From Callorhinchus milii (taxonomy: Eukaryota): 64,000 nucleotides of DNA. A model generated the notes under the pieces. That model made no database searches and was not told the DNA's origin. It saw only the letters and a program-made list of their open reading frames with translations. The DNA lies in NCBI RefSeq assembly GCF_018977255.1, contig NW_024704743.1, positions 12,588,001-12,652,000 of the forward strand, given 5' to 3'. Of the stretch, positions 7,801 to 62,138 are shown one piece after another; position 1 is the first letter of the stretch; each line of letters opens with the position of its first letter. A program made the position numbers and the translations under genes.

Positions 7801-10800
7801 GCTACCCTAGCTGGTGCAAGGAGAAACAACTTGAAGATAGGGAAAGAATGCCTGGGAAAGTGCAGAGAGCGGGAAAGAAGTCATGAAAAAAAAAAGTTAG
7901 AACACAGATGGCCAAACTAGTTTTTTTAGAGGAGCCTCGGAAGAGCCTCTGAGGAGTCTTCTGGAGAGCCTCTGGGGAGCCTCTGAGGAGAGAAAGGGGA
8001 CAAAGTCTAGCTCTCGCTGGAGTGCACTGCAAAGAGGACAAGTTCAGCCTTGCCGGAGTGGACCATCCAGAGACGTTTGCAGCTAGAAGCAAGCCAGAGA
8101 TGTTTGCATCCAGCAGCAAGCCAGAGACAATGTTTAACTTTTGTGCCAGCCTTAGAACTTTGTCACGACTTCCTGCCTGCTTGGTAATATCTCTCCTACT
8201 TACTAAAACACATACCCAATATACATACCAACAGTTAGACATTATTTAGGCACATTTCATATATCACATAATGTTTTTTTATATATGTTCAGAATTTTAG
8301 TATTGAGTGTATTATTAAGATGATGATAATAATAATCCTTGCATTTGATATAGCGCTTTTCATGTCTTCTAGACGTCTCAAAGCGTTTCACAGAATATGC
8401 TGTAAAGTGAATTGACTGTATATTTGTGGGCGAAACGCGGCAGCCAATTGCGCACAGCAATGTCCCACAGACAGTCGTGGATTGAAAATGATCAATTTAT
8501 TATTTTTTTGGGGGGAGAGTTTAGTACTTTAGTAGTCATTTAAGCATGACAGGTAATGATAATGCGTCGGGTGTAATGTGATGCTTATGCTTGTGTGGTT
8601 TTATAATTGCTAATAAAACGTTTAATAATATCCTTGGTGTGGTTTCTGACAAATGCTTGAACCCAATTTCACAAATTTGGTGACCACGAAGGGACTGACA
8701 AGTGTCTTGGTCATAAGACTAAGAGCCAATATAGCAATATTGTCTGTCCGAACAAAAGGGACCTCAAGTGTTTGACTGAATCATACTCAAGTCACATATA
8801 TATTCACACAAACAATAAGTGAAGGAGATGGGGAATAAGACTAACAAGAGTTAGGAAAAAAAGGGCCAACTATGTTAGACATCTATATTGATAAAATAGG
8901 GAAACAAGTACTGCATGCGGGTTAGAAGGGTTCTATGAGAACATGGAGAATCATGCAAGTCCACTAGAAGGAGCTGTTGATTGGCCTGATGAAATGTCAG
9001 GGTTGGGTGTCACAACAATTCGCTCACAAAAGCAAGCCGAGCGAGTGTTGCGATACGCGATTTACTGTGCCATGGTCATTAATAAACAGAGCAGATACCA
9101 GGAATATGGAATTAGCAAAGGTAATTAGGGAGTCCCTCAAACAGTTAGAGGACCAAGAGGAGTATGTCTTGAACCAGATCAATGACCATCAAACTATGAA
9201 TTGTGAGCAGGCAAAGCAAATTTCCCATTTAACTGGCACCGTTAGCAGCAACATCTAATAGCCATGTCAGCATGGGTCAGAATGCATTTTCAAGTGCGAA
9301 ATGATTAATGGAACTCGAGGCTGCGTTTAAGGAAATTCAGCGCCAGTTAGAAGATGCAGGGGGAGCGTTAAGAGAGGAAATGGAGAAACAGACAAAAGGT
9401 AGATTTGGCCGCTGATCACATAGAATGTGCCAAACAAATAGCTGAATTACAGACAGCACTAGATCTTAAAAGGGCGTTGGTATCAGCTATCCAGATCGCG
9501 CCGGCTGCCACCGATCCAATGATCAAAACGGCACCCCGGAGCGATCAGATAGTCGAATCTTTGGCCCCAAGGGAGGAGGTAACAGTGGCAACTGCCCTGC
9601 TTCTCGAGACCGAACCCATGAATGAGCCTGCTAAGGTAACCCCCCCCCCCAGCCAAAACCAAGGAACCGTAGAGTTCAGGTAGCCATCCTGAGCAAAACT
9701 TCACCCCAACTGCAACCCCCCTGCCATACTCCCCTTCTAAACCCTGCACAGTTCAATCTACCCTCAACCTCAACACCCAGATATTCTGATCTAGTGTCAC
9801 CTCGCTTTGTACTGGTTTCGGCTGAGATAGGAGGTTGACGGGCACGATCTCTGTTCTCTCGCTCTACCGTTTCCGAAGCCTCATCACACCCAGAATCGCA
9901 AAGGCGATACACCCTGACACCGCTTCCCCGTCAAAGAAAGAGCAGTGGTAATAGTCCGATTCCTACTCCACGAGTTCCGCTTTGCCAGACGACACCTTTA
10001 TCAGCCACAGACTGCAGCACTCTGGTGAAAGAGATAGGGACAATTTCCCCAGGAAAGCATCCCTCGACTTTCAGACGAGAGTGGACTGCTTTTGTGCAGA
10101 GACAGCCCGAGCTGGACAGTTTTGAGCAGGTTAGGGTAAAAGTCATTGACCCTAAATTACAGGAAAGGCTCCATACAGATCTGTTTAAAATGGGAACAAG
10201 TGCAGTGTATGTGAGTGAGCAAATAGAATAGGCATTAGGGATTAATCAAATTGACACTGATTAGGAATTCGTTAATGCTGTACAGGATTTAAGAGAGCAC
10301 CTGACCGCATTCGATAGGCAACTCTCCGCGCTTTTCGCGCTGTCCCAGGTAAACGGTATCCATGCTGATCCCCACAGGCAGGTCATGTTAAACAAAAATT
10401 CTTGACAAAACTCCACCCAAAAGTCCAGGCTAAATAAACTAGGGATGCTAGTGACACCTGAGGATTATTGAAACAAGCTTTTCGCAATGGTAGTTAAAGC
10501 ATGGGAAGGTGTCAGAAGCCTTCAGACCAGGTACCACGATCGGAGGGGGGAAAGGAGGTATGCTATGTAGAAGGGCCAAAACCAGGTATAATGACCCGGG
10601 ACGAAAGCAGGGTAGAAAGCCAGGGGAAAGCAGAGCTAATGTGCCTTACAGTACCGGCAGAAATCCAAGCAACTCACCCTGTCATGTTTGTGGTGACTGG
10701 GCATTGGGCGCAGACCTGCCCTCAGAAGTGCAACAGCAGTAATGCTCCACCCCAAAGGGAGGGACCTAAAGCATCAGCAGCCAGTCCCACCTGTGAGGAC

Positions 10801-13800
10801 TTTGTGAACTGGTCAAAACAATTTCAAAGGGGACTGGGTACTGACCAATCGGCTAGTAATGCTGATAACAGCAATGGTCCAGCCCACAGTAGAGACAAGT
10901 AACACAGCAAAGACAAGTAGATGTGATAAAGTCTGTCTCACCCATGTGTCCCATAGCAGGGATTTACATTCCAAAATCCAACCCCCCCCCCCCCCCCCCC
11001 CCCACTATGGCCAATTGACGGTTCCCGGCCTTCCCACTAACTTCCCCCAAACTATGTCTATCATTTGAACCTGTATTAGGAGCCAGACCTTATGTTAAAC
11101 TGGTGGTGAATAGAGGCCCATCGCAACTTATGTTAATTGACACCGGATCTGACGCTACTATAATACACTCTGACACTCCGACTGAAAATTTGCATGCTAC
11201 GAACGAATGTATGGAATTGTGTGGGTTTGACGGGAGCGCTGTGTTATCGGTCCAATTGACACATGTTAAACTAACCTTCCCGGTGGAAAGTGGGTGGTGT
11301 ACGTTAGACGTACTGAGTGCGTCAGTGACCAACATGATCCAGAAGAGAGGGATATTGGGAGCAGATGCTCTTTTAAAATATGCGGTGACAGTTGATTTTT
11401 CAAATCAATGCCTGTGGATAGGGGATCCCACTGGAGGTGGGGAGATCGCATATCCATAATGGGTTGATGACTGTCATGCGGTATTTGCAATTAAAAAGGG
11501 TGAAAGTTACCCCCCCATACAGTTCCCAGATAATATAGTGGCAAAAATCTTTGCTGGCCAACCCTCAGTGGTGTCTCTCCACAAGTATGAGTGTGAAAAG
11601 TTAGCTGCTACTGAGACCATTAACGGACCACCGAACAAACCCTGCAAGCAATATCCTATACCACGGGATAGCCACCCCTACGTAGCTGATACTATTAACT
11701 CGTTAAAGCAAAAGGGTGTCATTCGAAAAGGTACATTCACCACCATTCGCGTTCACATTTGATAACCAGCAATACACCTGGATGTGCATGCCCCAAGGGT
11801 TCCACAACACTCCGACTATCTTTCACAAATGAATGGCTGCTATTATTAAAGGGTGCATCAATTCTGAGTGTGTGTTTTAGTATGTGGATGATATTTTAAT
11901 TGCAACCACTGACTACGACACTTGAATTCAGACATACTGAACTGACTGGCTGAAGCAGGACTGAAAATGAACCCCAAGAAGGCTCAGCTACTACAAAAGA
12001 CTGTAACTTTTCTTGGAATACAACTGCCTCCTAGTGGCCGTATGCCAGATGATAAAAAGATCGAAATATTGTCCCGGCTGCCGCTCCCTAAAACAAAAAC
12101 AGCCCTGCGATCATTCTTGGGTCTGGAGGGATATCAAAGGTGGTCCATTCCATCCTTTGCTGAGCTCGCCAAACCGCTGTACAAATTGTTGAAAGGACAA
12201 GAGGACTCTGTGCTAGAATTTTGGACTGATGTTCACACTGCAGCTGTGGCTGCTTTAAAACAAGGAGTCGTACAAGCCACAGCTTTGATTTCTCCTTTTC
12301 ACCTGGAGGTAGGTGCGACTGACCAGAGCTGAACGACACCTGCTGGCCACATTCTGGGCCTTTACACATTTTACCTTTGTGACCAGTCTCCAGAAGGTGG
12401 TGCTACGTTCGCCGCACACTTCATTGACATTGTTGCTCAGCCCCGGAGATACTTCGGCGTCCTCTCAAAGACTGAACCGATGGGCCTTGGTACTGGGACA
12501 GCGGGACAACGAGATTACCTCACAACGAACAACACTTCTCCCTCATATGCTGCTATACGACGGAAACCCCCACGAGTGTCTAGCCCCACGCACCAAGTTT
12601 CAACATACATCCTTGAGCCTTACACCTCTTCCAGAGGGACAGCATGTGTATATCGATGGATCTTCCTTCCACGAAAAAGGACAGCCCCAGACAGGGTTTG
12701 CTGTCATCCTTCCACCAAACCAACAAATCATGTACCAATGCCAGCTGCACTCATCACAGTGTGCAGAACTAGCTGCCTTCCAGGAGGCTTTGAATCAAAC
12801 AGCAGACAAATCCACAAACATTTGGTCTGACAGCGCCTATGTGGTCAACACTGTCACTCTGTTACCTCTTCATCGGTCAAATTCCTTCCGGAAGACTGAT
12901 GGTAAACCATTTATACACCAGCCACTGTTGCAAACCATTTGGGAAATGCTCTCTGCTCGAAAGACTCCTTTGAACCTGGGAAAAGTTAAAGGACATTCAA
13001 AGATAGTGGCACCCCACACCCAGGGGAATTCTGATGCAGGCAAAGCTGCAAAGTTTGCGGCCACCCCTTTCCTCGGCCCTCCAGGTCGCATTGGTGGAAA
13101 AGGCTCCTTCTGCTTTGGACATTCAAACTTTACAGTCAACATACGAACCGTAATGTTGATGTGTTACAATGGCACAAAGAAGGCAAACCTTCTCCTCCAG
13201 CTGACTGTGACTGAGCCCCTTTGACTGTGACAACCCAGACAAATAAAGACTGTACTTCTGAACCAATTTTAATGTACTCGACCCCAGACATAAACCCAGT
13301 TGTGTGCATACCCCCAAGCCTGCAAGAGGAAGTATTCACAATATTTCACATGCACCCTATATCCGGTCACTATTCTGCAACCGTTACGACACAATTAATT
13401 TTGCCTTTGTGACCAGTCTCCAGAATTTTGTAGTATGTGGTAGCCAAATGTGGTAGAAGATATTGCGCAGCGCACCCACCGGTGTTTGGTATGTTTGCAG
13501 CATAATCCCCCTCCTCGAGGACAGTGAGTGTTCTTTAAATCGGCACCCCCACCCCATGGTCCATGGACCCATGTGCAGATTGATTTCATTGGTCTATTAC
13601 CAATGGCAAAAGGAGGTTTTAGGCACTGTCTTGTAATAGTAGACAAATTTACAAAATGGATTGAGGCTTTTCCCACTAGGATTAACACTGCGCTAACAGC
13701 AGCACGAATCCTCTTGTGCGAAGTGATCTGCAGGTGGGGAATACCTGTACAAGTGGACTCAGACCAAGGATCGCACTTTACAGGTCAAATTTTCTCAGAA

Positions 13801-16800
13801 ATGCAAATCATGCTGGGAATCAAACAGAAATTGCACATCTCACACCAACCCTAGTCTTCAGGAGTGGTGGAGCGGGGAAATCAGACCTTGAAGACATTGA
13901 TTAAGAAATTCCTTGCAGATCACCCCGCGCAGTGGCCTGAAATGTTGCCTAGGTGTTTGATGGCTTTGAGAAATGCCACTCACTCCACAATTGGTATTTC
14001 TCCCCATCAGGCTATGACAGGAGAGCCATGGTATCACCTGGTGAAGTGATATTTCTCAGGAAGACACCTATACAAACCAGTGCCTTAACTGAGAACTGGG
14101 TAATAAAAATGAGGGGTTGTATACAGGTTACTAATCAATTTGTTGCAACAAACATTAGACGATCCAAGGCAAACATGAAACAATGCTTTGACAAAAAAAT
14201 TAAACCAGCAGAGTACCAGATTGGTGATTCAGTAATGGTACTTGATTATGGGAAAAGGGAGCATCTATTCAGTCCCAAGTACAAAGGGCCTTTTCCCATC
14301 ATTGATAAAGCCAGCCCCTCAGTTTACTTACTACAATACCATAGCAAAACCAAGAAATATGTCCTTTGGCATCACATGAATCAGTTGAAAACTGTATAAT
14401 AACAGATATTACGCTTGTTCTGTCAAGAAGCACCATGGAATACCCAGATGGTGGCGAACAGTTTACAATGTTGGACAGCACCCTATATTATGGCTTTTAT
14501 CACAATTGTTCGTTATTGTTCAAATCGTAATACTCGTTGCATTGATAATTGCAGTAAGATGGGTTCATTCTCTTGTTCACGGTCTACAAGAACAGTCATC
14601 CCACTTGGATCTGGTCTTACTTATTAGAAGAAGATAATCCATGATAAAGCAAGATGTGTATTACTAACCAATTTTTGAAATATATTACTATTCAATTTTT
14701 TTTATGTGTGTTACTAACCAAAGTTTTTTTTTGAGAGATCAGAAACCTTAAGGTTCCTTCACTCTCAAGGTGGGGACTGTAAGTAGTTGGGATTATAGTA
14801 TAAGAATCATTAGTATTGATCATATTGTGAATAGATGAATTAAGTAGAATCAATTAAAGAAATAAAAACTGCCATGTGACACACACACACACACAGTCCT
14901 AGAAAGAGGTACCGAGCTAGGAGGAGTACACTGGAATGCGATCCATGGCCAGGGAAGATAAGGATAGCTGGATCTAGAGGATGGATGGTAGGCCATCTGC
15001 GCTTACAAGGGCATGTGACTTATAGGCAGGAGAGATAGGAACCTGGGATAATTGGACCAGGAGAATGGATGGGATACAAACTAGTAATTAAACAATGCTA
15101 TGATGCTGGATTTGTGTACATTTCACGGCATTAACACCGATTGAAATTTCGTTATTTTATAACAAATAAATCCTTGTATTTGAATTTGCGCTTTTTACAT
15201 CAAGGATTTACTGTAAACTATAGTGAATGTATTCAGAGTGAACAACTGGGCTATCCTGAAATATATATCCTGAACATTCATTTGACCAGGAAATTGATCG
15301 ACGGGATGACTGACGAGTGGTGCTCTTAGGAAAAATCTGCATGTAATATTTTTGAATGAGGGCCTGTGAACTACTTTTCATTTTAATGTTCACCCAAGTT
15401 ATTTGGTAAGAAGGAAACTTTCATTAGTATCAATTAAAAAAGACAAAAATGGCAATTTAAAATACCTTTTTTAGCCCAAAAAGAATGTAGCAAGAAAAAG
15501 TAGAACTTAATAGAGATATTCAGGTCAGGAGGACATCTCAAATTATTTCTCTGGGTACACTGTCAAGTGATTGTGTATGTTGTATGCAAACACTGACATA
15601 TGGGAACTACTTTGATTGTGATTTAACTGAAACCCCATGATAGAGTAGGATTCATACCAAGGAAAATTAATGGTGGACTTAAACAAAATGAAAGCTGTAA
15701 CAGGACGATTTAGTGTTGAAATATTATCGGTAAAGTATTCTTGTTGTATTCACCTTAGCTGCTGGTACTGTTTCATAGTGAGTGAAAGGTGGGGACTGTA
15801 AATAGTTGGGATTATAGTATAATCTAAATTCTAGCAATATAAAACTAATAATTCTAGCAATATGAAATTAATAGCCTGGATTCTATTGATGGAGAAACCA
15901 CATCTTGGTTGGGGTGGGAATGGGTTTTGTCAGTACAATTGGATGAAGTGGCATCTAATTTATTAAATAATCCAGTTATTTGGACTTGCTGGTTTTGTAT
16001 ACTACAGTGTGAATCGATCCCAATTGGTAGCACTCTAAAAGATTGTGTGTTCAAGCACCACATCTAGACTTTGAGCTCACGTCGAGGCTGAAACTTAAGT
16101 GCAGTGTTGGTGGTGAACTCCATTGATGCAGATGTGACCTTTTGGATGAGCCAACAACAAATTGGATTTATATAGCACTTTTCACTGAGGAGAACATCCC
16201 AAAGTGCTGGATAGTCAAGGGTTTGCACCTGAACTGAGGGTTGGAATCAAGTGACGGGGTGGAGGTGGGAGGTTGAGCTGAGGCACGAAGGATGCAAAGT
16301 TAAACAAAGCCTGTATATGGCGCTCTACAAAAGTGAAGGGAGTTACTGTGTCCTGACCAACAATCCCCCATATAAAATTATCCATGGCTGTTTGGGACAT
16401 TGCTGTGTGCAAGTTGGCTGATGTATTTGCCTTCAAAACCACTGCAGTTTATAGTATATCTTGTGCCAGCGCCTTGGGACGTCCTCCTGACGTGAAAGGC
16501 GCTTTATAAATGGAATCTTGTTGTTGTTGTTGAGATGTCTCTGCTGTATGAAAGGTGCTGTATCAAATATATGGATTATTTATTATGATCTCCTGTGATC
16601 TTTGTGTGATTTAAATCAGTTCATATTTTCACTAATCTTGTGACTATAAGACTTTTCATTTCATATATGGGATGGGCTGTTCACTTTTTTATTGTCTATC
16701 TGGTCCTCAATTGAATGAAGAGATAGGTGCAGTTTTCTTCCAAGCTACATTAGTACCTCTCATTGTTAGGTTACCAAGCGGCATCAAGGACTGTGAATTT

Positions 16801-19800
16801 CATTTTTCCTGTTTCCATCACTGGCGGCACTGCAACCTCTCTTTAGGATTGTACGTTTTAGCCTGGTTCAGATTAGGAACTGAGTGACAGTGGGACCCAA
16901 ATCTGTGCCTGTGGTCCTAGGTGTTAACACACCAATGCTCGATCCCTCCATGCTGTCCTCATAAGGGTTATTTGTAATACTGGTCCAATGAAAGTTGCCA
17001 GCTAAAATTGCTCTTTGTTTGTGCCAGGAACCGGAGGATAAAGTGTTTATTGCTATAGCAGAAGCAATGGAAGAGATGGTGGAAAATGATGTTGATGCCT
17101 ATTGGCTGGTCAAGTGCTTTGTAAACCAATTCAACACCAAATATGGAGATTCGGTGCCTCACTTGGTAAGCAATATGCTACTAAAAACATGTTAACATTG
17201 TATGGTTTCTGCAAGGGTCTACTATTACAGGCTAGCAGCACTGCTCTATTTGTTTGTGAGTCAGTTGTTCTGTACTCCAATTAATATGGTATATGCTGTT
17301 TTATCAGTGTACACTAGTTTGTCATCTCAATAACTAATAATCCCTGTTATACTTGCCATCCAGATCTGGTATTAAGAATGAGTTTGACCTGCTAGTTATA
17401 TAATGCTTTCTCAAATTTTTCAATTGGTTGAATTTCAAACCAGGAAGTTCTGGGTTTAATTTCTTAGCAAATCCACGCAATCCTTCACTCATTCAAGGTC
17501 ACTTGGAAACCTTTACAAAACGATGCTCCTGTTGGTAGGTAAGTGGAGTTTTCCCTGGGCTGAACTGACTCGATGGAGATGTGCCTAGCAAAGCCAGGTA
17601 GGCCTTGGCCCTCAGTAATCCAACAATAGCTTGTAGTATACATATGTCTTAAATCATGTAAGTGAAAGCTTGGTTCATTTCCTTTCTCTTGTTTCCTCCA
17701 CCCCTAAAGATGAGGAACAGGAAGATAAAATACAGCATGCTCTTTATTTGAGATCAGTTAACTTGATTTTCTGAACATTTTATCTAATTGGCAAGGATGT
17801 CAGCATTGGGAAGCAGGCACTTTCCCTGGGATCCCTTTGGTTGATGTAAGTGGAATCTGTTAACCTTAGATGATCATTTACATATATTGGGAGTCCTTCA
17901 AAATTATTTAAAATTGTTTGTGGACATGTTTACTGACCACGATTTAACCTTCAATATTACTTTCAAGTGATGTCTCTCTTATTCTTTCCAACCTGCCAAA
18001 TAGCCCAAGAGTCTTGAACATTATCTGAACCTGGAAGACAGCAAACTTCACACCCACTTGAAGAAATGCTCTGCCATGAATAAACTCCCTTATGACTTGT
18101 GGTTTAGGTGTTGCTTTGCAGGTTGTTTACCTGAATCCAGTCTTCAGAGGTAGGTAAGAGTTTGTCAAGTCAATAATTACAATATATAGAATTATTATCT
18201 TCATTGTATGAGCAGTTAATACTAACATTTTTGGTCTCTATTATATGGTAAGACTAGAGGTATCTTAGTTGCATGGTGTGATTTCAAGTATGCTTGTGTC
18301 TCATTCTTGGGGCTAGTTTTGAATGTCTCAATGTAGCATAGATTTGGGTATAATGGTCTACTGATGCATGAGAGCAAAGTTAGTGACACAGAGTTAGTGT
18401 GATTGAATTATCAGTGAAGCTGGTTAAAAACATGGAGTTGGGAGAAAATAGAATAATAGCAATAATCCTTGCATTTGAATATATAGAAGGGATAAGGAGA
18501 GAAAATCTGAGATGGAAATCATTAGTTACTGAGAGGTGTTAAAACTCATTGTGGTTGCGTATAATTACACGATCCATAAACTGCAACTTCCAGTGCTTGA
18601 TGGGTGCATTTTCACAAGAGGTCTCTGTGCACAGGATGTGCATGCATTTGTGCATTGCTCCATCTACAAGCAGCAAGGAAAACCTTGACATGATCAGTAT
18701 GCTTTACTGGTAAAATTAAGAAGTGATTTTAAGCAAAATTGAATATAGATACAAATTACAATTCTTCTTGATAGCAAGACACTTGAGGGATTGTAGACCA
18801 TCTTGGTTAAGGGATGAAAGTGCAGAGGGACTGAGCGTCCATAATGCCAAGGAGACTTTGGTGCCCAGAAAATCTGAAACTGTCCCAACAGTAAAAGGGA
18901 TCCGAGCAGTCACAGGTGTCAATGGGCAGAGACTGAGCAAAGGGAGAAACAGAATGGAATTGAAAAAAGTATGAATGAGTTTGATGGGACTCCAGGTCTG
19001 CTGATGTTCTGTCAGCTTGTCTGACAGACATCAGGGCCTGGATGAGTGCAAGTTTCCTGCAGCTGGATGTGGACAAGACGAAACCCATCCTTGGCTCCCG
19101 TCACACTCCTGCGGATCTGAACTCCTCAACCTCCCCGGGCTCTCCCTCAGACTCACCGAACCAGTGGCAATCTAGGTGTCGGATTCAACACCTACCTGTC
19201 CTTCCTTCCCCACATCCGGTGCCTGACCAGGACCGCCTTCCTCCACCTCTACCACATTGCCTGCCTCCGACCAAAACCTTTGTGCATGCGTTTATCACCT
19301 CCCTGTCACAATTATCCTATTCTTGCAGTCTGTAGTAATGAGAAAATAATATATATATATCAAACAGCTGGACCCGGGTTGTTTGATTGACAGTCACTTA
19401 ACAAGCAGCCCGCAGGGTAAAAGAACGCATGGACGCTAGCGCGGGAAAAAGTCCTCGCATTCGCATCATACGGTGGGCGGAACGAAAAGCCTATAAAAAG
19501 CAATGCTCGTGGTCGCTAGTTAATGGTCATCATCCGGTACGTACTGATGTGTACAGGACTACTGTACTGTCGGGTTGGTTTAAATCTATTTTACTAATGT
19601 AGTGTTGTGCTGCAAGTTGATATAGTTATGTGTGATAGTTATGTTTGATCTCATTGTTGTTTATCTTAAATTCTTGTATTCCTTACATGCAAGGTAGCCC
19701 AGGGTTGCTAGGTCTTAATAAACAGCTGTTGTTTTTAGCGAATGTTTCCTCGAGTCTCTGTAATATTCCAAAACAAGAAAAGGAGAAAACATTTCAGACA

Positions 19801-22800
19801 GTAGCTGTCGACACCAGAGTTTTGCTAGTGCGAGCAGACTCTGATTAGACAGTCCAGTTACCAGGCTTTGGAGTTAACTGGGAATACAGATCTGTGTGGG
19901 TGACTCTGACTTGGTTGAGTCATCTTTGAAACAGGAACTCACACTGACAGGGAGGGTTAGGAGAGAGTAGAGGCCACTTAGTACAAAAACGTTACTAAAA
20001 TTTGCAAGTACAAGGAGTGAGAACCATCGCACTTGGTGACAACGTGGGGCTCGAGGACATTGACGTAGAACTTCAGAATTTATTTCTACTGGAGTATAAG
20101 GATAAGATAATGGTAGATGCAGCAAGCGACCGGGACAAATTACTAACACGCAACATTCCACGTTCCGTGAAGCATACAGGGCGAACCCACCGAGAAACAC
20201 TTCCGATGGGGGAATGGCTATATGAACAAGGTGTAGCTACTACACACTCAGTAACTGAAGAGAATCGGGGTCATAGCGTGAGAAAACGTAATGAGTCTGA
20301 CCCAGGAATAGAATATTTGGAATATGGAGATTGGGATAGGCAGAGCCTCCGAACTGAAGGAATTGAAATGTTAGGATTGGCCCAAAGAGGTAATTCTGAC
20401 TACAGTAACAGAAGTAGAGAGGGAGTGAATGCTTTGTTGCAGCTGAGAGAGCTCATAAGGTTAACCGACCCAAATAAGAAAATCTAATTAAAACTGACCT
20501 CTACCCGAGTGAGCAGTACAGACAAAACTATACCTGACTCTTTACAGCCCATTATTGTGGTTCGAGAACGGGGATCACCGGCTAGCTCAGAGACAAGAAG
20601 ATCCTATGTGGAGGGTCCTTGGCGCACTGTGTGGGATATCAATAGAGAAAAAGTTTAGAGTTTGTATGAGGTACCGAGAGTACCAGCAGTGAAAGAGTGT
20701 GCGGGGATAGTTGTAGAGACCACATGGGAGGAGGCCACAAAGCAAAATTGGGAGGGATACCTCACAAAAGTACTCACTCAGTTCAAAGCCAGGGAAAAAG
20801 GGACCAGCGGAACATCTGATAATTGGTTCTGCTCCAAAATTAAAAGCAGACCTGTTTCTGTATTTAAATAATGGTGCAGACTATCTCCTAAAGGCGGAAA
20901 TGGGAGCAGCAATCTTCTCCTTGGCATCGGGGCTAACAGCAAGAATACATTTAACTCAGAAATATAGAGAAAGTGCAAAAAATGCAACACAGGTTTTTAA
21001 GCCACAGAAACAAATGCTTTCAGAAAAATATGAAAATAAAGTAACTGAAATAAATATAGCTTTGCAAGAAATGCAGGCTGAGGTGCTGAGTTTGTCTAAT
21101 CAACTTCTGCCAGTAGAAGAAATTATAGTCCAATTAAGGTTAGACGAGGCAGGGCAGCTGTACCAAATAACAGAATTAAAAGCACAGTTGAGATCTAAGG
21201 GCCTCGTAAACGAGAGACTGGGAGTTTTGATGGGCGCGAATTGCATGTGGCAAATGATAATGGCGTACAGCTGGAGAATCACTCATACACACCAAGTGTG
21301 CTAAGGCTTAAATCCTTGACAGGGACTATGCCTGAATTCAGAATAATTGAAAGCTGGTTGGATTCAGCGATATCGATAGAAAAGTTGGTAGTTTTAGAGA
21401 ATAAAACCGCCATGCAGATTTATTTGCAATCAATAGTTAACAAATGCTGGAGGGACCTGATCAACCCCGAGTGGGATAGTTTGATCATGGCACTTAGCGA
21501 AATTAAGTGAATGGTTGTACGAGAAAAAGGGCTTCCAGAGAAAATAGACCAGGTTATAGCACCCACCTGAGTGCTGAAAGCGCTCGCTTCTTTGGGGTTC
21601 AACATAAACCTTTAGAAAAGCCAGATAAGCAGATATAAAGTAGATTGGCCACACTGTCTCAGAAGATGGGGTAGGTTTTTAGGAGGGTTATCTAGATAGA
21701 ATTAGAAAACTTGTGACTTTTCAAAATAGGAAACCATTACAAGGAATTTGGGGGCAATGTTACATTATAATTAATTATGTAATCATGTGCTTAACTATTC
21801 TGTGCTGGTAAGACCTTTATATCAAAGGCTTACGAAGGCAGGGGAGATAGAAGGCAGTGTAGATCTTGACCACGTGCAGCCGGAGCTGGAGACTCTGTGA
21901 GATACCACTGGCACTTAGAGTCGTTGGTAAGGACTTATTGGTGTCGATACAAGTGGGGGTTGACTCCGCAATAGCCAGGGTCTGTGAAGAGGGGGAATCG
22001 ATTCCTCTAAAATACATTAGCTTCCAATTATCTCGAGCTGAAACCAAATTCAACTTTGAGGAAACAATCTCTCAGCTGCCACTACAATTTTAGCAAAAAT
22101 TAGAAATTTCGCACAGCATGCAAAGAAAATAAAAATTTCAACTGCATGCATCGGCATCAGATTGGCAATGCAGGGCAGAGGAAAAAGCCAAAAGGCTTCA
22201 AGGCCAAGGTGGGCTTTGTGGGAAGGGCTTTTATAAGACCCCATGGAAGAGTTTCACACTCGGTCAGAAGCAGATTTGGAGTTAGACAGCTTACTGTCTG
22301 AAAGCAGATCCCCATTGGAAGCGGTTCTTTGGGACCTGGTGGAAGGGTTAATGGTTTTATATTGCGATCTTCGCAGGATGTCAAAAGGGTGTTGGCTGGT
22401 GCTCGGATTGCTATCAGTAAATGGACGACAATGGGTTGGCAAGAGACGGAGAACTTCTTTATCCCCTGCAAAGGTATTTGAGTACAGGCTTCTGAGGTAA
22501 CTGCTTTGTTGGAGGCGCTTAAGCTCCTCCTGTTGGACGCAAACACGGATATTGTTAGTGATTCAGCCTATACGTGTCGAGCCTACATGGATGACTTAAC
22601 TAAATGGGCTATGGACAAACCATAAGGGAAAACCCTCAGTCCACAAGCAATATTGCTGACAGATTTGGGAGGAGAACAAACAGGGAGAAAAAACAGAAAC
22701 CTTTAATCCACGTTTGGCATATGATTGGACACCAAAAAGATAGAATGCAGTGTAGATCTTGACCACATGCAGCCGGAGCTAGAGACTCTTCGAGACGCCA

Positions 22801-25800
22801 TCTTGCAGGTCTCCCCTCCCGCTCCTTCTGCAATAGCTGCACAGACCTACTCACTTGTTCTGCATGCTACTTGAAACGAGCCACCACAGGCTGCCAAGAT
22901 ATCAGTGACAGGGGCAGTAAACTGTGATTTTACTACTGACCCTGAGTTAGTTAAGTTAGCGTCATTCCTGGAGTCGGGGCAAATGGACAAACTTCCTTTC
23001 TGGGCCAGAGGCAAAAAGGTTCTGGTGGAAAGATCGGAATTGTACTGGTGAAGGGAGACTTTAAACCAACTTATTCCACCTACACGAGTAAGGGGGTATT
23101 TAATTACAACTGCCCACGAGGACCTAGTAGTCTCCACAATGGAGTAAAAGGGACCAAGGAAATTCTAAGGGAATACTGGTGGTCCAATATCAAGAGGGAA
23201 GTTAAAACTACATGGTGGATTGCATGCGGTGCATTCGAATTAATCCAAACTCAGTGAAACGGAATACTCAAACCGAGTATGTTCAAATGGGATGCATCTG
23301 GGAGAGGGTTTACTTAGATCTTATCAGACCCTTGCCTAAAACAGCCAGAGGTAATCGCCATCTATTCATGTTCGTTGATTATATGACTCGATTTACTATA
23401 GCCTACCCCTCTAAGAGGTACATGGCTAAAACCATATTCCAGACAATAACAGAGCAGTTTATTCTCAGAAACAGGGTTATGAAAATTCTCGAGTCTGACC
23501 GTGGAAGCCATTTCACGGTGACATAATAAAGTTGGTGACCCATAATCTACATAATTTACAAGTGCCTTACCATCCAGGGGGTTCCGGAAAGATCAAGATC
23601 AAGATCATAAAAAAATGCTCTTAAAAAGACGTATATCCAGAGAGGATGCAGACCAGGGTTTTACCCCTCAGTGATAGACCAGGGTTTTACTCCTCAGTGA
23701 CAGACCAGGGTTTTACCTCTTCCACGGAAGACAAATGATTACCCTGCTTACACAGATGCCAACAGAAATCTCTACTTCGCAGCTGGAGAACTTTGAAGAG
23801 TCTTTAGCTGATATCGTAACTCAGCATAATACAGGTCACCATTATGAGAACACTTGTAACTACAAGCAAGGAGATTTGGTTACTTGGAAGATACATTACA
23901 GGTCTGGCACTTTACGAGAAAAATTCCACAAACCCAGTAAAATTGTGGAATTCCTAAAACGATAAAAATCCTCACTTCCAGTGGTAAACAAATAACAGTT
24001 TTGGTTGACCAGGTCAAATGAGTACAAGTTTATCAAACCATTCGAGTGTTGGGGAAATAATGGCGTGCGAGCCAACCCCTTTCTCCGGGTTCAGATATTG
24101 AGGGATGCGAGAATGCAGGAGCCATTCAAAAACTGGACTGTATAAACACCTGGAGGTGACAAGTTAAATGCAGTTGTCAAATGTTCAATGGGATCATCTG
24201 GAAAGGGTATTCTAAATTCTGGGATTGACCTAATGATTATCATCAAAATTGAGTTATAATGAGTGGCTCTGTTATACATGTGTTTTATAGTAATAACTGG
24301 CATAAATCTCAGAACAAGATACTGTGTGTAAGTTTCTGTCTTCTAGTTGACTTGAAGTGCATGCGGTTTACAGAGAGAGAACAGCAGCAGGCATCTGGAG
24401 AGCGATACGACAGAACAGAAAGTTTTGTGACAGACACTTTGTTGGACTTTTGAGTTCTTTCCTCCTACAGATTGATAACCAAGATATTATTTTCCGAACA
24501 TATTAATTATCGAGAGGGGGGAAATGTCATGGTTATCCTATTCTTGCAGTCCGTAGTAATGAGTAAATAATATATATATATATTGAATAACTATAATTAA
24601 GGGAAATGGGTAGGCCTTAGCAAACAGCATACATGAGGTACCCGAGTTGCAACAATGGAAAGGACCTGGGCTGTTTGATTGACAGTCAGTTAACAAGCAG
24701 CCCGCAGGGTAAAAGAACACATGGACGCTGGCGCGGAAAAAAGTCCTCGCATTCGCATCATATGGTGGGCGGAACCAAACGCCCACAAAAAGCATTGCTC
24801 GACTCTTCTCGTGGTCGCTAGTTAATGGTCATCATCCGGTATGTACTGACGTGTACAGGACTACTGTACTGTCGGGTTGGTTTAAATTATTGTACTAATG
24901 TAGTGTTGTGCTGCAAGTTGATATAGCTATGTGTGATAGTTATGTTTGATCTCATTGTTGTTTATCTTAAATTCTTGTATTCCTTACATGCAAGGTAGCC
25001 CAGGGTTGCTAGGTCTTAATAAAGAGCTGTTGTTTTTAGCGAATGTTTCCTCGAGTCTCTGTAATATTCTAAAACAGGAAAAGAAGTAAAAACTTCAGAG
25101 AGTAGCTGTCGACACTGGAGTTCTGCTAGTGCGAGCAGACACCGATTAGACAGTCCAGTTACAGGCATTGGAGTTAACTGGGAATACAGGTCTGTGTGGC
25201 TGACTCTGACTTGGTTGAGTCCCTTTGTATCCCCCCTGGATTACCTAAACGCACTCCTCGTCGGTCTCCCCAGCTCCATTATTCAAAAATCCAGCTCATT
25301 CAGAACTCTGCCGCCTGCATACTGACTTGGACCAAACTCTGTACCCCCATCTCACCAATTCTGACCAGGGTCCACTGGCTCCCCATCACCGAATGGATCG
25401 ACTTCAAGATCCTTACACACCTCCCTACCTCTCCGATTTTCTGATTCCCCAATCCACCACCTCTGCTGGACCGTCACTGGCCTCCTGCTTGTCCCTCACA
25501 CCCTCATTCAGCCACCATGTCCTAAAAGTCTGGAAAAACTCCCTTCATCCCTCCACCTTGCCCCCTCCCCCTGAAAACCTTCCTTTTCAACCATGCTTAC
25601 AGACATTCCCCACTTGCTCGGAATCAGTTTTCGCCACTGTTAATCGCTCTGAGACGTTACCCTGCGTGGACGGAGGCTAAATAAGTGTAAGTTGTTGTTG
25701 ACATAAACAAGATTAAGTGCACAAGTGTTCTTGTAATATTGATACAATCAAATGAATTCCAAATAAGATCATTGCTTTAATGGTTGCAAATGGTCCATAT

Positions 25801-28800
25801 TAGACACAAAGTGTTTAACTTGTAATGCTTAAATTTCCATCTCCAATTGATTGCTTTATTGAGGGGTAAATTAAAACATTGCAAATACATAAACTTTCAA
25901 GATTCACAGCAGTTCTTTATTCAATAGCTAATCCCTTGACAGCAGCTAATCTGACAAAATAATTTTCACTTAAAAATTAGTGTTATGCAAATTCTAAAAA
26001 GCAAGTCATTTCGCCAGTAGCAAATGTACTGAGATTCAGTCACAACACACCAGGATTCTGTGTAATGCTGCAACCTCTGCTGAAAAGGTTACTTTAGAGT
26101 AAATTCAGCAGCAGAAATTGCAGATATAAGAACAGGTGAGTGAGTTATTGGTCACCAGTAACTTCCCCAGCTCAAACTACCACCAGAAAAGAAATGACCT
26201 TGGGTTTGTGCCCCTTGTTCTTTTTTTGTCCATATTAAACATAATTTTGAAATTCAATTACTTTCACTTCTATCCATGTGCCCAGTAAGTGAGACTACAT
26301 GTGAGATCGATAGCCTTCACTCATTGGCATATAATTGTATATAAACTAGTTTCTTAGACAATTTGGCGTTTAATTGGAGGTACCATATTTCTTCTTTGAT
26401 TGAATTGGGAGGAGTAGCTTGAGTTTTATCATGCTAATCTACATCAATGCCATTGATAGCTGTCTGGAATCTCAAATAAATACTGACAATTAGAATTGGT
26501 GAAATGTGGTACAAAAGATTAATATATTCTTTTTGGTGTTGGCTATCAAAACACAACCAAATGGTTGTGATTTCTAAAAGGTAATAGCAAATGATTCTAA
26601 CATTTGTTTTATTAGGCTTTGCTGTATTTACTAGTAATTATATGATTTTGAGCAATGTGGTCTATTTTCATTGTATCTTGGTTTATAGTTATTGATGGGA
26701 ATGTTTTTTTCGTATAGTGTGCTGCACCAGATTATTCTTTATAGGAGCAGAGCAGTTTTATTTATTGTTTATTGATTACCTAATATATCTTGCTATTTTG
26801 AATTTTTAGGGTGTGGGACAAAATCATAAGTGGATCCTGCAAAATTTTGGTCTTTGTAGCTCTGGAGATTTTATTAACGTTTAAGATGAAATTAATGGCG
26901 ATTAATAAAGCAGAGAATATTACACAGTTCCTTGAGAATGTAAGTATGTATATCTTTTTCTAGCCTTTAAAGTTTAAAACAGTTTATTTCTGTTTGGCTT
27001 GTGAAAGAGCTTTGAGATGCTGTCTGGCGTGAAGGGCGCTTTATAAATGCAAGTTCTTGTTGAAAGGTATGGATATCAATTGTGACATGATACATTTTTT
27101 AGGTGTTGGTTTGCCATAGGTGAGTTAGTTACATTATGGTGCAATTATGCTGCATTAATTGTTATATTTTTCTATATTTTCAATATAATTTAATTCAAAT
27201 TTATTGCTATATTTTTACATAAATGCATTTTTACAAGCTGTACATTTTGTACATTTTCAATCGATCTTAGAGGCAGAAGATTTAATATCTCGACTGAATC
27301 TGCATCTAAAGTATGGCCTTCTGAACAATATAGTTCACATTCTCACAGCATCTTGGATAAAAGTTTTCTGGATTCATTTTTAAACCAGCAGAACTATAAC
27401 TTTAAAATGTTCTAGCCTTGTTCTGGAGCAGAAATCCAGCTCTAATGAGAATCCAATTTCAGCTACCATTTACTATAGCTAATGTCTGCGCCTGTATTTT
27501 TTCTAAAACAATCCTAGCATTCCATTGAAATCAGAAAAAAATAAGCAAGATCATGAACTGTATCCAAGTTAGCAGACTAACCCGACATTACCGTCCCTGA
27601 TTATTGTCAAGTGTATTAGTAGCCATGTATGTCAAAGTCCCATGAAATGATTTAAGAAATTTTTAACACTTCTAAGTTGAGCTTTAGTAAATATACCTTG
27701 ACCCTGATCTCAGAAAGCACCTTCTACTGGACCAGTGAGATTTTCCATTTCCCCAACCAGCCATCCTGTGGCCTTTTTGTGAGTGTTCCCAAATTATTAT
27801 CTTGAGCCCCACTACAAAAAGAGGGTTTCATTCTATCGATCCAGTTGAACTCAGGTTCCAAAAGAGGATAGGACATGACTAACTCACTGCATCATCTAGT
27901 TTTTCTTGATGATGATATAACAATACTCTCTATATTTTGAATGCTAACTGTAAAGCTGAATATAGGAATATACAGATCCAAGAAACTGCACACAAGAGCT
28001 AAAATGGTTACTCACATTTTTTGTAATTTAGTTCTGCTGTCGGTTAGTGTTTAGAATTCATCAGCTGGTGGCACTCTCATTTCTGACTCAGAAGGATGTG
28101 GGTTCAAGCCTATGTGATGATACTTCAATGCAGTGTTAGGGTTGTACTGCAATGTTTGAGGTGCTGTCCTTCAAAGGGGACGTTAAACTGGGGTCTCATC
28201 TGTCTGTTCAGGTGGACATTAAAGATCCTCTGGCACTATTCAAAAAGCGAAGGGAGTTTCTCCCGGCCAGCATTCACACTGATGAAATTGGGCACTCACT
28301 TCATGGTTGTTTGTGGGACATTAATGTGTGCAGATTAGCTACCATATTAGCCTACAAATAAAATCTTGTTAAGTGCTTTGAAATGTCTCCAAGACGTAAT
28401 AAGGCGCTACACCATATTCAAGGATTATTATATTATAGAATAATAACCATAAATCACAAGAACATAAGGTTAGGATGAATAAGATCTTTTAATCCATTTG
28501 CTCTCATACTTCCAGAATAAACATCTTCCAATTTCAGTATTCAATCATTTCTTAAATTTTGTCTAAGTATTGCAAGAACCACATGTCGACACAACAGCAA
28601 AGATAATTAATAGGGTTTTATTAACTTCTAAATTCTTTGAAACTACATATCTATTATAAAGTTACAGATATAATTGGAAATTATAATGCCTGCTATTAAT
28701 AATATTGAATTCCGATCCTTATTCTTACAATTATGTGTTTTCATTTAGATTCCACAGGAGAATACGGATGCCATTATAAGCAAAGCCATTGACTTGTGGC

Positions 28801-28835
28801 ACAAGCACGTTGGGACCCCTGCACACTCTGTGTAA
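1715..28835 (+). CDS. TBC1D7: TBC1 domain family member 7 (TSC complex subunit), join(1715..1826,2433..2513,6959..7143,17028..17165,18004..18149,26810..26939,28749..28835), 879 nt, 292 aa
   Basis: All introns are GT-AG with consistent phases. The spliced ORF runs [35 protein letters not shown]...[16 protein letters not shown], recognisably TBC1D7. Confidence 0.97.
2433..2513 (+). CDS. TBC1D7: TBC1D7 coding exon 2
   Basis: ttcttgcag acceptor; (D)[26 protein letters not shown](G); donor gtatgt. Confidence 0.95.
2738..2990 (-). mobile_element. CR1-type LINE ORF2 C-terminal fragment
   Basis: [14 protein letters not shown]...[32 protein letters not shown]. Confidence 0.88.
3076..5200 (-). mobile_element. 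L2 LINE, endonuclease + RT fragment
   Basis: [49 protein letters not shown]. Confidence 0.88.
6959..7143 (+). CDS. TBC1D7: TBC1D7 coding exon 3
   Basis: ccctgcag acceptor; ILPPHYESH...[16 protein letters not shown]; donor gtcagt. Confidence 0.93.
7354..8673 (+). repeat. ERV-A 5' LTR (contains a SINE insertion and two minisatellites; AATAAA 8612-8617)
   Basis: Starts TGTAAATAGTTGGG and ends TTTCACA just before the PBS; its first ~310 bp are repeated at 14778-15092. Confidence 0.88.
8323..8510 (-). mobile_element. 5'-truncated SINE inside the ERV-A 5' LTR
   Basis: Reverse complement of the family core and (TTA)n tail. Confidence 0.88.
8678..8695 (+). promoter_or_regulatory. ERV-A primer binding site, tRNA-Arg(TCG)-like
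   Basis: TGGTGACCACGAAGGGAC vs the recalled complement of the vertebrate tRNA-Arg(TCG) 3' end TGGCGACCACGAAGGGAC; one CpG-type mismatch. Confidence 0.8.
8870..10902 (+). pseudogene. gag: ERV-A gag remnant (coiled-coil N-part, Pro-rich linker, capsid-like region, frameshifted CCHC knuckle at ~10680-10720)
   Basis: TGT CAT GTT TGT GGT GAC t GGG CAT TGG GCG CAG ACC TGC = C-X2-C-GD./G-H-X4-C with a frameshift; lies between the PBS and the protease. Confidence 0.7.
11085..14399 (+). pseudogene. pol: ERV-A pro-pol remnant (protease, internally deleted RT, tether, RNase H, integrase)
   Basis: Protease LIDTGS (11139) and [22 protein letters not shown] and YVDD (11881). RNase H YIDGSS..AELAA..WSDSAY..KVKGH..GN. 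Integrase [24 protein letters not shown] and KYKGPF. Confidence 0.92.
14767..15092 (+). repeat. ERV-A polypurine tract (14767-14776) and 3' LTR (14778-15092, truncated)
   Basis: AAGGTGGGGA c TGTAAGTAGTTGGG...; roughly 95% identical by eye to 7354-7665, then homology stops abruptly. Confidence 0.88.
15785..15822 (+). repeat. second PPT plus a 26-bp start of the same LTR
   Basis: GAAAGGTGGGGAC TGTAAATAGTTGGGATTATAGTATAA, identical to the start of the 5' LTR. Confidence 0.8.
17028..17165 (+). CDS. TBC1D7: TBC1D7 coding exon 4
   Basis: gtgccag acceptor; [35 protein letters not shown]...PHL; donor gtaagc. Confidence 0.95.
18004..18149 (+). CDS. TBC1D7: TBC1D7 coding exon 5
   Basis: [15 protein letters not shown]...[21 protein letters not shown](R); donor gtaggt. 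Confidence 0.95.
19304..20031 (+). repeat. ERV-B 5' LTR (GC box 19475-19480, TATAAAA 19492-19498, AATAAA 19717-19722)
   Basis: TGTCA...CCATCGCA termini; direct repeat of 24525-25229. Confidence 0.87.
20034..20054 (+). promoter_or_regulatory. ERV-B primer binding site, tRNA-Lys1,2(CTT)-like
   Basis: TGGTGAC-AACGTGGGGCTCGA vs the canonical TGGCGCCCAACGTGGGGCTCGA used by foamy viruses; 2 nt after the LTR end. Confidence 0.85.
20110..21570 (+). pseudogene. gag: ERV-B gag remnant, 3'-truncated by a deletion
   Basis: ATG 55 nt after the PBS; a coiled-coil segment; [25 protein letters not shown]...EWDSLIMAL resembles the foamy Gag central capsid-like domain. Confidence 0.7.
21570..24020 (+). pseudogene. 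pol: ERV-B pol remnant (RT thumb, tether, RNase H, integrase; protease and RT palm deleted)
   Basis: [62 protein letters not shown] (22557); integrase HH, YWW, Cxx[32 protein letters not shown]. Confidence 0.88.
23649..23720 (+). repeat. 26-bp tandem repeat, ~2.7 copies, inside the ERV-B integrase
   Basis: (C/T)AGACCAGGGTTTTAC(C/T)CCTCAGTGA repeated. Confidence 0.9.
24512..25229 (+). repeat. ERV-B PPT (24512-24524) and 3' LTR (24525-25229; ~100 bp of distal U5 missing)
   Basis: GAGAGGGGGGAAA TGTCATGG...; aligns to the 5' LTR up to TTGGTTGAGTC; AATAAA 25018-25023. Confidence 0.87.
26810..26939 (+). CDS. TBC1D7: TBC1D7 coding exon 6
   Basis: tttttag acceptor; [28 protein letters not shown]...QFLEN; donor gtaagt. 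Confidence 0.95.
28060..28435 (+). mobile_element. old DeuSINE (SacSINE1/AmnSINE1-like)
   Basis: Deu-domain sequence GAGGTGCTGTCC..ACGTTAAACTGGGG..CAGGTGGACATTAAAGATCC..GGCACTATT; similar old copies at ~5790-6065(-) and 31275-31670(+). Confidence 0.75.
28749..28835 (+). CDS. TBC1D7: TBC1D7 last coding exon
   Basis: catttag acceptor; [31 protein letters not shown] at 28833-28835. Confidence 0.95.
   Translation: MPQENTDAIISKAIDLWHKHVGTPAHSV

Positions 28836-39714: not shown

Positions 39715-62138
<22,424 letters not shown>

Follow-up and report, generated by a model that had tools for sequence, protein, structure and literature searches.

Within an 8,660-nt intron of TBC1D7, in a 64,000-nt stretch of the Callorhinchus milii genome (RefSeq assembly GCF_018977255.1, contig NW_024704743.1, positions 12,588,001 to 12,652,000 of the forward strand; hereafter the window, in whose numbering positions are given), lies the broken provirus of an endogenous retrovirus (ERV), oriented in the same sense as the gene. 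It interrupts a long interspersed nuclear element (LINE), presumably L2-like, between the two TBC1D7 coding exons that bound the intron (Table 1). Described here are the architecture of this provirus, the family of copies to which it belongs, its relationship to foamy viruses, and a TBC1D7 transcript that would end within it.

Architecture of the provirus

The two long terminal repeats (LTRs) are genuine direct repeats, 19304-19928 aligning with 24525-25229, and their Kimura two-parameter distance is 0.066 over 622 nt in pairwise alignment and 0.083 in a multiple alignment. Among 23 family LTRs they are mutual nearest neighbours (SH-aLRT support 99) and far closer to each other (0.07-0.08) than the family median of 0.22. 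A primer-binding site (PBS) starts two bases after the CA end of the 5' LTR, and the same site with the same 2-nt offset occurs in seven other family loci; one more hit of the scan, L028 with five mismatches, was treated as noise. The site is taken to be of the tRNA-Lys1,2 type from its match to a 22-nt motif. The gag start codon follows 55 nt downstream, at 20110, and a purine run, the polypurine tract (PPT), precedes the 3' LTR. The target-site duplication (TSD) is 4 nt long, because nine of nine independent copies of the host LINE carry four letters where the two flanks of the provirus together carry eight. Likewise, among the 12 solo LTRs with both ends located, six have a perfect 4-bp TSD and two have one with a single mismatch, and perfect duplications of 3, 5 or 6 bp were found in none; 8 of 20 LTR loci were excluded from this count (the window's own two, one 5' LTR and five without a safe start). 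In one contig of sequencing run X2, the 5' junction of the provirus is crossed with 0 differences.

An earlier note on this DNA, made from its letters alone, had reported the LTR pair, the position and type of the PBS, the gag start, the PPT and the TCCC duplication in the LINE, all of which are borne out, as is the recurrence of a Lys-type PBS and a 4-bp TSD across the family on which it had staked its reading. Its description of the cis-architecture as intact does not hold: the 3' LTR breaks off at an internal LTR position, so that the terminal ~105 nt of U5, which in the family finish in ...GCA, are gone, and the 728-nt 5' LTR is ~80-110 nt shorter than solo LTRs (777-846 nt). That note also passed over the deletion of the gag end, protease and reverse transcriptase (RT) core, the absence of env, the position within TBC1D7 and the splicing treated below.

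The 5' gag region is coding, with a single low-stop frame in each aligned block and one-frame protein matches to the distant copies L026 and L054. About 380 codons precede a helical stretch (~21253-21555) that is probably capsid-like. Although the earlier note considered this N-terminal region unusually long, it is not exceptional, because the capsid domain of prototype foamy virus (PFV) starts at residue 300 (PMC5102385) and teleost foamy-like ERVs reach 3.4 kb of gag, their genes measuring 3,342-3,411 nt (PMC5210030; papers cited by PMC number were available in part, and statements drawn from them refer to those parts). The resemblance to PFV Gag that the note had proposed gained no support from any profile, sequence or fold test. 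Foamy features were sought in Gag (N-terminal domain, central capsid with PGQA/YxxLGL, glycine-arginine boxes), and the profile and fold searches were blank. No foamy Gag domain appeared in a Pfam scan of three frames, a PDB sequence search or the ESM Atlas. Genome profile searches with Gag_spuma_N and Gag_FV_central gave no family match, at low power, the controls being equally silent. Comparison by hhalign with the teleost protein P0095 returned a probability of 0.7%, and an AlphaFold model of Gag (pLDDT 50) gave no Foldseek hit, merely generic helix matches up to Z 6.0. These blank tests have low power, and a capsid is still compatible with all of them. A Cys-His box (CX2CX4HX4C) is absent from all six frames in 10 of 10 loci, though decay could hide one. 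P0095, from Coilia grayii, is itself a foamy-like polyprotein model with an N-terminal Macro domain and with gag and pol in one predicted protein.

Downstream of gag, a deletion at a 6-nt microhomology has removed the gag end, the protease and the fingers and palm of RT, amounting to 1,452 nt (~1.45 kb) relative to copy L041. What is left of pol is an RT thumb followed by a tether (degenerate first RNase H), a second RNase H and an integrase. The tether region has weak matches to feline foamy virus (FFV) Pol 453-493 and to the C. milii protein P0019, and the second RNase H matches its Pfam profile below cut-off; this pairing of tether and RNase H is also found in lokiretroviruses (PMC7947760). 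Both Pfam matches of the integrase (rve and H2C2) are below cut-off, its best PDB match is PFV integrase (E 1e-4), and a word-index protein search with the integrase piece gave no match. Three 26-nt tandem copies stand within the integrase remnant, at 23650-23727.

The distance from the pol stop to the LTR is 463 nt in the window and 465-709 nt in six other copies (463-496 nt in five of the seven, 584 and 709 nt in the other two), leaving no room for env in any of them; five further loci had a single anchor. A genome-wide search with the Foamy_virus_ENV profile gave one sub-threshold hit (L099), unrelated and with no pol nearby. The env gene was presumably lost after endogenisation.

Table 1. 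Features of the provirus and of the surrounding TBC1D7 intron (window positions)
Feature	Position	Strand	Evidence or remark
TBC1D7 coding exon (human residues 174-221)	18004-18149	+	PDB match E 4e-21; AG/GT borders; GT donor at 18150
Host LINE, 5' part, interrupted by provirus	19010-19303	+	Sequence, LINE spacing test; left border approximate
TSD, left copy (TCCC)	19300-19303	+	Sequence; solo-LTR count; LINE spacing test
5' LTR (TG...CA), 728 nt	19304-20031	+	TATAAA at 19492, AATAAA at 19717
PBS, tRNA-Lys1,2-like	20034-20054	+	Match to 22-nt motif, three differences
gag, with stops and frameshifts, 3' end cut off	20110-21575	+	Low-stop frame per block; protein matches
Coiled-coil-like stretch in gag	~21008-21226	+	Heptad count 14/21 vs 12/54
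Internal deletion junction	21570-21575		6-nt microhomology
RT thumb and tether remnant, broken	21575-22270	+	Colinear with RT-bearing copies
RNase H remnant, broken	22340-22740	+	Pfam RNase_H E 0.0016, below cut-off
Putative ERV-derived alternative last exon of TBC1D7	22377-25040	+	Right end inferred
Duplicated thumb piece, after RNase H remnant	22738-22800		Repeat D4, copy of 21845-21907
Integrase remnant, broken	22980-24062	+	Pfam rve E 3.6e-5, H2C2 E 0.09; pol stop near 24062
Spacer from pol stop to PPT, no room for env	24063-24511	+	Spacing to LTR measured
PPT	24512-24524	+	Ends AAA before the LTR's TG; no GGGTG border
3' LTR, 705 nt	24525-25229	+	AATAAA at 25018
TSD, right copy (TCCC)	25230-25233	+	
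Host LINE, 3' part, interrupted by provirus	25234-25680	+	Sequence; right border approximate
Next canonical TBC1D7 exon (human residues 223-265)	26810-26939	+	PDB match E 1e-17; borders
Last TBC1D7 coding exon	28749-28835	+	Borders

Family copies and relationship to foamy viruses

A genome search with the LTR returned 285 candidates, of which 40 were scored, mostly solo LTRs 77-82% identical, and internal pieces used as queries returned 16 and 18. The earlier note had looked to full-length copies for the genes missing here; protease (DTGA) and RT (YVDD) are indeed visible in other copies, but every copy read is broken. Over gag and 5' pol this provirus is linked to the RT-bearing L039 by 86-100% DNA identity, and its integrase links it to L037 (100/99). 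In 20250-21149 (L039:1230-2130) it and L039, two proviruses 335 kb apart, differ by only 6 mismatches in 895 nt, whereas their LTRs differ by about 15-25% and it differs from L041 by about 16% throughout. Independent sequencing runs carry the window's sequence in this tract, and the nearest relative of the two LTRs described here is a solo LTR, L053, lying between the two proviruses. The simplest reading of the near-identical tract would be ectopic gene conversion with L039. Divergence of the LTR pair translates into 15-19 million years at 2.2e-9 and 150-189 million years at 2.2e-10 substitutions per site and year (rates from PMC4422223), a dating that is unreliable because conversion is seen and because the pair is far closer than the family median. 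None of the sequencing-run contigs listed covers either the large deletion junction or an unoccupied insertion site. Within a contig of run X1 that matches elsewhere, 21756-21834 carries ~10 substitutions and four gaps of 2 nt, reflecting either an allele or a converted patch.

The sister copies also bear on how gag and pol would be joined. In 10 of 11 copies gag ends in TAG, and in L039, L051 and the distant L026 (where the stop is TAA) the protease motif lies 27 codons past this stop in the same frame. An in-frame stop between gag and pol is known from gamma- and epsilonretroviruses and from XtERV-S (PMC8278194), and readthrough of the gag stop, as judged from these reading frames, would be the likeliest route to Pol, a view held with fair but not full confidence. 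Several observations count against it: the exact in-frame spacing is retained in just two of nine measurable close copies, the others carrying indels, mostly at differing places (three copies are 2 nt shorter at one place), and a fold downstream of the stop is not conserved (z below -2 in 1 of 11 copies). At the other end of the genome, the last PPT bases before the LTR's TG are AA, AAA or AAC in nine of nine copies, and none of these copies has the GGGTG border that is reported for every foamy virus and teleost foamy-like ERV and tied to one-ended processing (PMC5210030). Because two spare bases stand on both the PPT and the PBS side, trimming of both DNA ends at integration may be supposed for this family.

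The placement of the family rests on RT. Read in one frame with X at stops, the RT of L039 scores 131 bits on foamy Pol, compared with 64 on Ty3 and 54 on HIV-2. In a maximum-likelihood tree of 38 RT rows the family forms a clade (100/96) that groups with two further C. milii lineages, L077 and P0019 (97/87), and this branch, confined to C. milii, falls in a 99/98 clade with the mammalian and salamander foamy viruses, which include one Scyliorhinus RT (P0209; 98/95), and with teleost foamy-like Pols, which include another (100/100). A quick tree of 87 rows gives the same foamy-related grouping (support 99), and an approximately unbiased (AU) test on RT rejects a grouping of the family with other fish and amphibian retroviruses (p 0.001). 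The published criterion for foamy-like ERVs (FLERVs, clade Tu) is an RT that forms one clade with those of foamy viruses and of the foamy-like elements of fish (PMC5512871), and the RT of the sister copies groups in just this way, inside the retroviral clade (97/92 branch). The Lys-type PBS and the 4-bp TSD agree with the FLERV pattern, in which the primer may also be tRNA-Asn or tRNA-Thr, but are not specific to that group. L062/L085 (G000:C5:60470764-60472218) and L077 (G000:C12) represent two more C. milii foamy-like lineages; the former retains an open frame of 494 codons that takes in RT and tether (protein P0019), in contrast to the decay of the family described here, and may be one of the CmiFLERV entries of 2017.

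Weighing on the other side, the provirus itself has no RT, and its placement is borrowed from its sister copies. Its own integrase scores 39-51 bits on seven true foamy Pols, 58-63 on two amphibian non-spumaviral Pols and 57 on two Gypsy proteins, and the integrase tree has no resolved deep branches. In the AU test on RT, a grouping of the family with Gypsy is not formally rejected (p 0.061), although branches 97/92 and 99/98 separate the two. In addition, the trees (plain LG+G4, no mixture model) contained no named epsilon-, gamma-, ERV-L, snakehead retrovirus (SnRV) or lokiretrovirus reference, so that the labels loki-like and ERV-L-like are derived from domain scores and tree position. The earlier note's assignment to the spumavirus lineage is upheld by the RT of the sister copies, and not by the provirus's own pieces, which do not discriminate, even though the three Pol motifs that it had quoted do stand in PFV Pol (P0201); of the joint RNase H and integrase placement it had proposed, the integrase tree was run, without resolution at depth. 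Classification of the element as an env-less, foamy-related ERV is nonetheless solid and very probably correct.

Of the other placements, a recombinant that combines a foamy-like RT with the gag and integrase of another fish retrovirus lineage would explain the readthrough, the two-ended processing and the non-foamy Gag at one stroke, yet is quite unlikely. It draws on the blank foamy Gag searches, on the occurrence of an in-frame gag stop in the non-foamy retroviruses named above, and on family integrase pieces that score 102 and 95 bits on Xenopus tropicalis P0068 and Aquarana P0082, as against 73-102 on foamy Pols. However, raw scores favour slowly evolving references, and in the integrase AU test a grouping with P0068 and P0082 is narrowly rejected (p 0.039), whereas groupings with foamy viruses, without or with teleost sequences, are not (p 0.117 and 0.204).

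Still less probable is membership of the true foamy viruses (Spumaretrovirinae sensu stricto), as in shark and ray elements grouping with the mammalian ones, with env and accessory genes lost after endogenisation. The Lys-type PBS, the 4-bp TSD, the YVDD motif, the missing Cys-His box, the best RT score on foamy Pol and the integrase test just cited are all compatible with it. The family RT, on the other hand, branches outside the clade of mammalian, salamander and Scyliorhinus P0209 foamy viruses (98/95), the GGGTG border is found in none of nine copies, an apparently in-frame stop parts gag from pro, and Gag_spuma_N, Gag_FV_central and foamy Env profiles gave no match (at low power, with silent controls). 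Filing the element among the true foamy viruses is not warranted.

The least credible reading, a non-retroviral LTR retrotransposon (Ty3/Gypsy, or lokiretrovirus- or Odin-like), is largely refuted by the RT tree: although there is no env, the 4-bp TSD and Lys priming are unspecific, two Gypsy integrases reach 57 bits and the Gypsy grouping falls short of rejection, the RT scores and intervening branches given above, a degenerate tether with a second RNase H, and rejection of a grouping with loki-like rows in the AU test (p 0.002) speak against it, and neither the marks of lokiretroviruses (RT sister to all retroviruses, F-like env, Ty3-like tether) nor those of Ty3/Gypsy (RT in the Gypsy clade, single RNase H) were found in the family. 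Separate from this family, L064-L071 (G000:C548, C466, C556, C1182, C364, C909, C771) are near-identical RT copies with long open frames on small contigs; their RTs group outside Retroviridae, together with Pols in which a Ty3-like tether is well preserved and followed by RNase H. By these features they may be lokiretrovirus- or Odin-like, and contamination is possible; no chondrichthyan lokiretrovirus is reported in the available part of PMC7947760.

Probable splicing of TBC1D7 into the provirus

In sequencing run X8, contig 30 spans 22368-23744 and is preceded by 763 foreign letters, the final 30 of which are identical to 18111-18140, a sequence in the TBC1D7 exon that is unique in the genome. 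A GT-AG join of 18149 to 22377 predicts the 2 mismatches and 0 gaps of this contig exactly, whereas a deletion at microhomology predicts none; the mismatches can lie only at its 5' end, since the listing shows none within the contig, and contig 24, which overlaps it, matches with 0 differences. The acceptor at 22377 has 11 pyrimidines in 17 positions, compared with 11-13 at host acceptors, and at 22357-22376, just upstream, the window has a small deletion that is lacking in seven of seven other copies. Depth of X8 contigs is 136-143 from 22377 to the LTR versus 0-26 in gag, a per-contig figure that is only a hint. These contigs halt 17 nt short of the LTR's AATAAA (25018), and nothing is covered beyond. 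Taken as an event in one data set, the exon joining TBC1D7 to the ERV is well supported.

The alternative last exon would follow a CAG acceptor, add 40 new codons, stop at 22498-22500 and continue as a long 3' untranslated region to the polyadenylation signal of the 3' LTR. In the predicted RNA, the human-equivalent residues 223-293 (the last ~71) are exchanged for 40 ERV-derived residues. Some facts tell against this reading: the junction is present in one of the two runs guessed to be RNA, in contigs and not in reads, and X1 is unspliced across 22377; the RNA status of X8 is a tool's guess, no run being on record as RNA; and the contigs, mapped to a stretch outside which the canonical next exon lies, give no isoform ratio.

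It is unlikely that the join lacks meaning, as it would if it came from occasional mis-splicing, from chimeric assembly or from a deletion allele in the DNA of a single animal. Such an origin would be in keeping with a single contig from a single run, with TCTTC being common to both sides, with X1 having no joint, and with an X5 contig that likewise starts at 22368. However, the mismatch pattern fits a GT-AG join and not a microhomology deletion, and the X5 start is explained because L039 is identical for 36 nt from exactly 22368. The step in X8 depth, as a hint, and the host-like pyrimidine content of the acceptor likewise disfavour an artefact.

Very unlikely is co-option of the ERV exon as a regulated short TBC1D7 isoform that would keep the TSC1-binding helices and tune mTORC1. 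A stop codon in a last exon is not expected to provoke junction-dependent decay, a point in favour of co-option, and in contig 30 host sequence passes into the ERV without a branch. The TSC1-binding residues of TBC1D7, 70-121 (PMC12245910), would be kept in the short form because they precede the break. On the contrary side, the 40-residue tail is an off-frame remnant, about one quarter of the TBC fold would be lost, and the junction was seen in one run only. Most likely, the TBC1D7-ERV exon is cryptic and tolerated, reducing the amount of full-length TBC1D7 in certain tissues and having no selected new function.

Elsewhere in the window, an earlier TBC1D7 intron contains a second degraded ERV on the same strand (7346-15092), which is not foamy-like. 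It has 324-nt repeats (7346-7665 and 14770-15092, 93%), a pol (11130-14390) 34-60% identical to X. tropicalis P0068, and little room for env. At 61798-62196 on the reverse strand, an open reading frame may represent an exon of PHACTR1, the neighbour of TBC1D7 in other vertebrates.

Proposed history and comparison with known systems

The provirus is probably best explained, overall, as a dead member of an env-less foamy-like ERV family that now acts as a splice and poly(A) trap in TBC1D7. Under this explanation, the family would have multiplied within the germ line, either through retrotransposition or helped in trans, Pol would have been made by reading through the gag stop into a Gag-Pol fusion, and two bases would have been trimmed from both DNA ends at integration, in the manner of orthoretroviruses and unlike true foamy viruses. 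The present copy would have inserted into the LINE within the TBC1D7 intron; later it would have lost part of U5 together with the gag end, the protease and the RT core, and swapped sequence with the sister provirus that lies at a distance of 335 kb. From the donor at 18149, TBC1D7 would splice to a cryptic AG within what remains of RNase H, and the RNA would end in the 3' LTR. A bolder version, which is doubtful, would make the chimaera lineage a deep third foamy-related branch with readthrough and two-ended processing, foamy viruses having acquired their separate Pol message and their one-ended processing after it split off; in the same version this copy would serve, in some tissues, as the predominant last exon of TBC1D7 and would shorten a subunit of the tuberous sclerosis complex (TSC).

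The kind of element and its host are already known, whereas the genome plan and the TBC1D7 splice are without account in the literature searched. A study of 2017 by Aiewsakun and Katzourakis described five foamy-like RT fragments of C. milii (CmiFLERV) and detected no gene but pol (PMC5512871), and the ERVs described by Han 2015 are SnRV- and epsilon-like only (PMC4422223). CmiFLERV shares with this family the host species and a basal position among foamy-related RTs; unlike here, no LTR, PBS, TSD or gag is given in the available part of that study (PMC5512871), and one of the five fragments may belong to the family. Searches that took in no subscription papers and no Repbase or Dfam yielded no account of the family's LTR, gag or genome plan, or of a TBC1D7-ERV transcript, and the available parts of PMC8227577, PMC6001957 and PMC10699275 hold nothing on this locus. 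Teleost foamy-like ERVs share with the family a mostly Lys-type PBS, a 4-nt TSD, a long gag and the lack of a Cys-His box, but have env, accessory genes and the GGGTG border, none of which the family has (Ruboyianes and Worobey 2016, PMC5210030), and form a separate RT clade.

True foamy viruses (PFV, FFV, bovine and equine foamy viruses and the salamander elements) have the most similar RT and share with the family YVDD, a Lys1,2 PBS, a 4-bp TSD and a tether with RNase H. Foamy viruses make Pol from its own start codon in a frame other than that of gag, reverse-transcribe late, carry DNA in their virions, bud in an Env-dependent manner and have an internal promoter in env. In contrast, the family stands outside their clade; its gag ends in an apparently in-frame stop and no start of Pol's own was seen, the PPT and LTR are 2-3 nt apart, the protease of its copies reads DTGA, and it lacks env, tas, bet and a detectable foamy Gag domain. 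A shark foamy ERV, CFEFV, is reportedly treated by Wang, Chen and Cui 2023, and that work and Chen et al. 2021 (J Virol) may already cover part of what is described here. Spread without env is shared with ERV-L (class III), and the parting of gag and pol by an in-frame stop with XtERV-S (PMC8278194), but those elements have a Ser or Leu PBS where the family has Lys, and the family RT stands apart from ERV-L-like bird Pols (a label inferred as above) and frog Pols. With its Lys PBS, 4-bp TSD, in-frame gag stop and AA between PPT and LTR, and without Cys-His box or env, the genome plan bears on the order in which foamy replication traits were gained.

Intronic ERVs that act as splice and poly(A) traps are familiar from mouse intracisternal A-particle (IAP) and early transposon (ETn) elements and from the exonisation of human LTRs. 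As in those cases, a sense insertion here provides a cryptic acceptor and an LTR poly(A) signal that would truncate the host transcript. What differs from traps of the IAP/ETn type is the setting, an old foamy-like ERV in a chimaera and a gene of the TSC complex. The TBC1D7 splice would be a concrete instance in which an old provirus changes a gene of growth control, in a reference vertebrate that evolves slowly.

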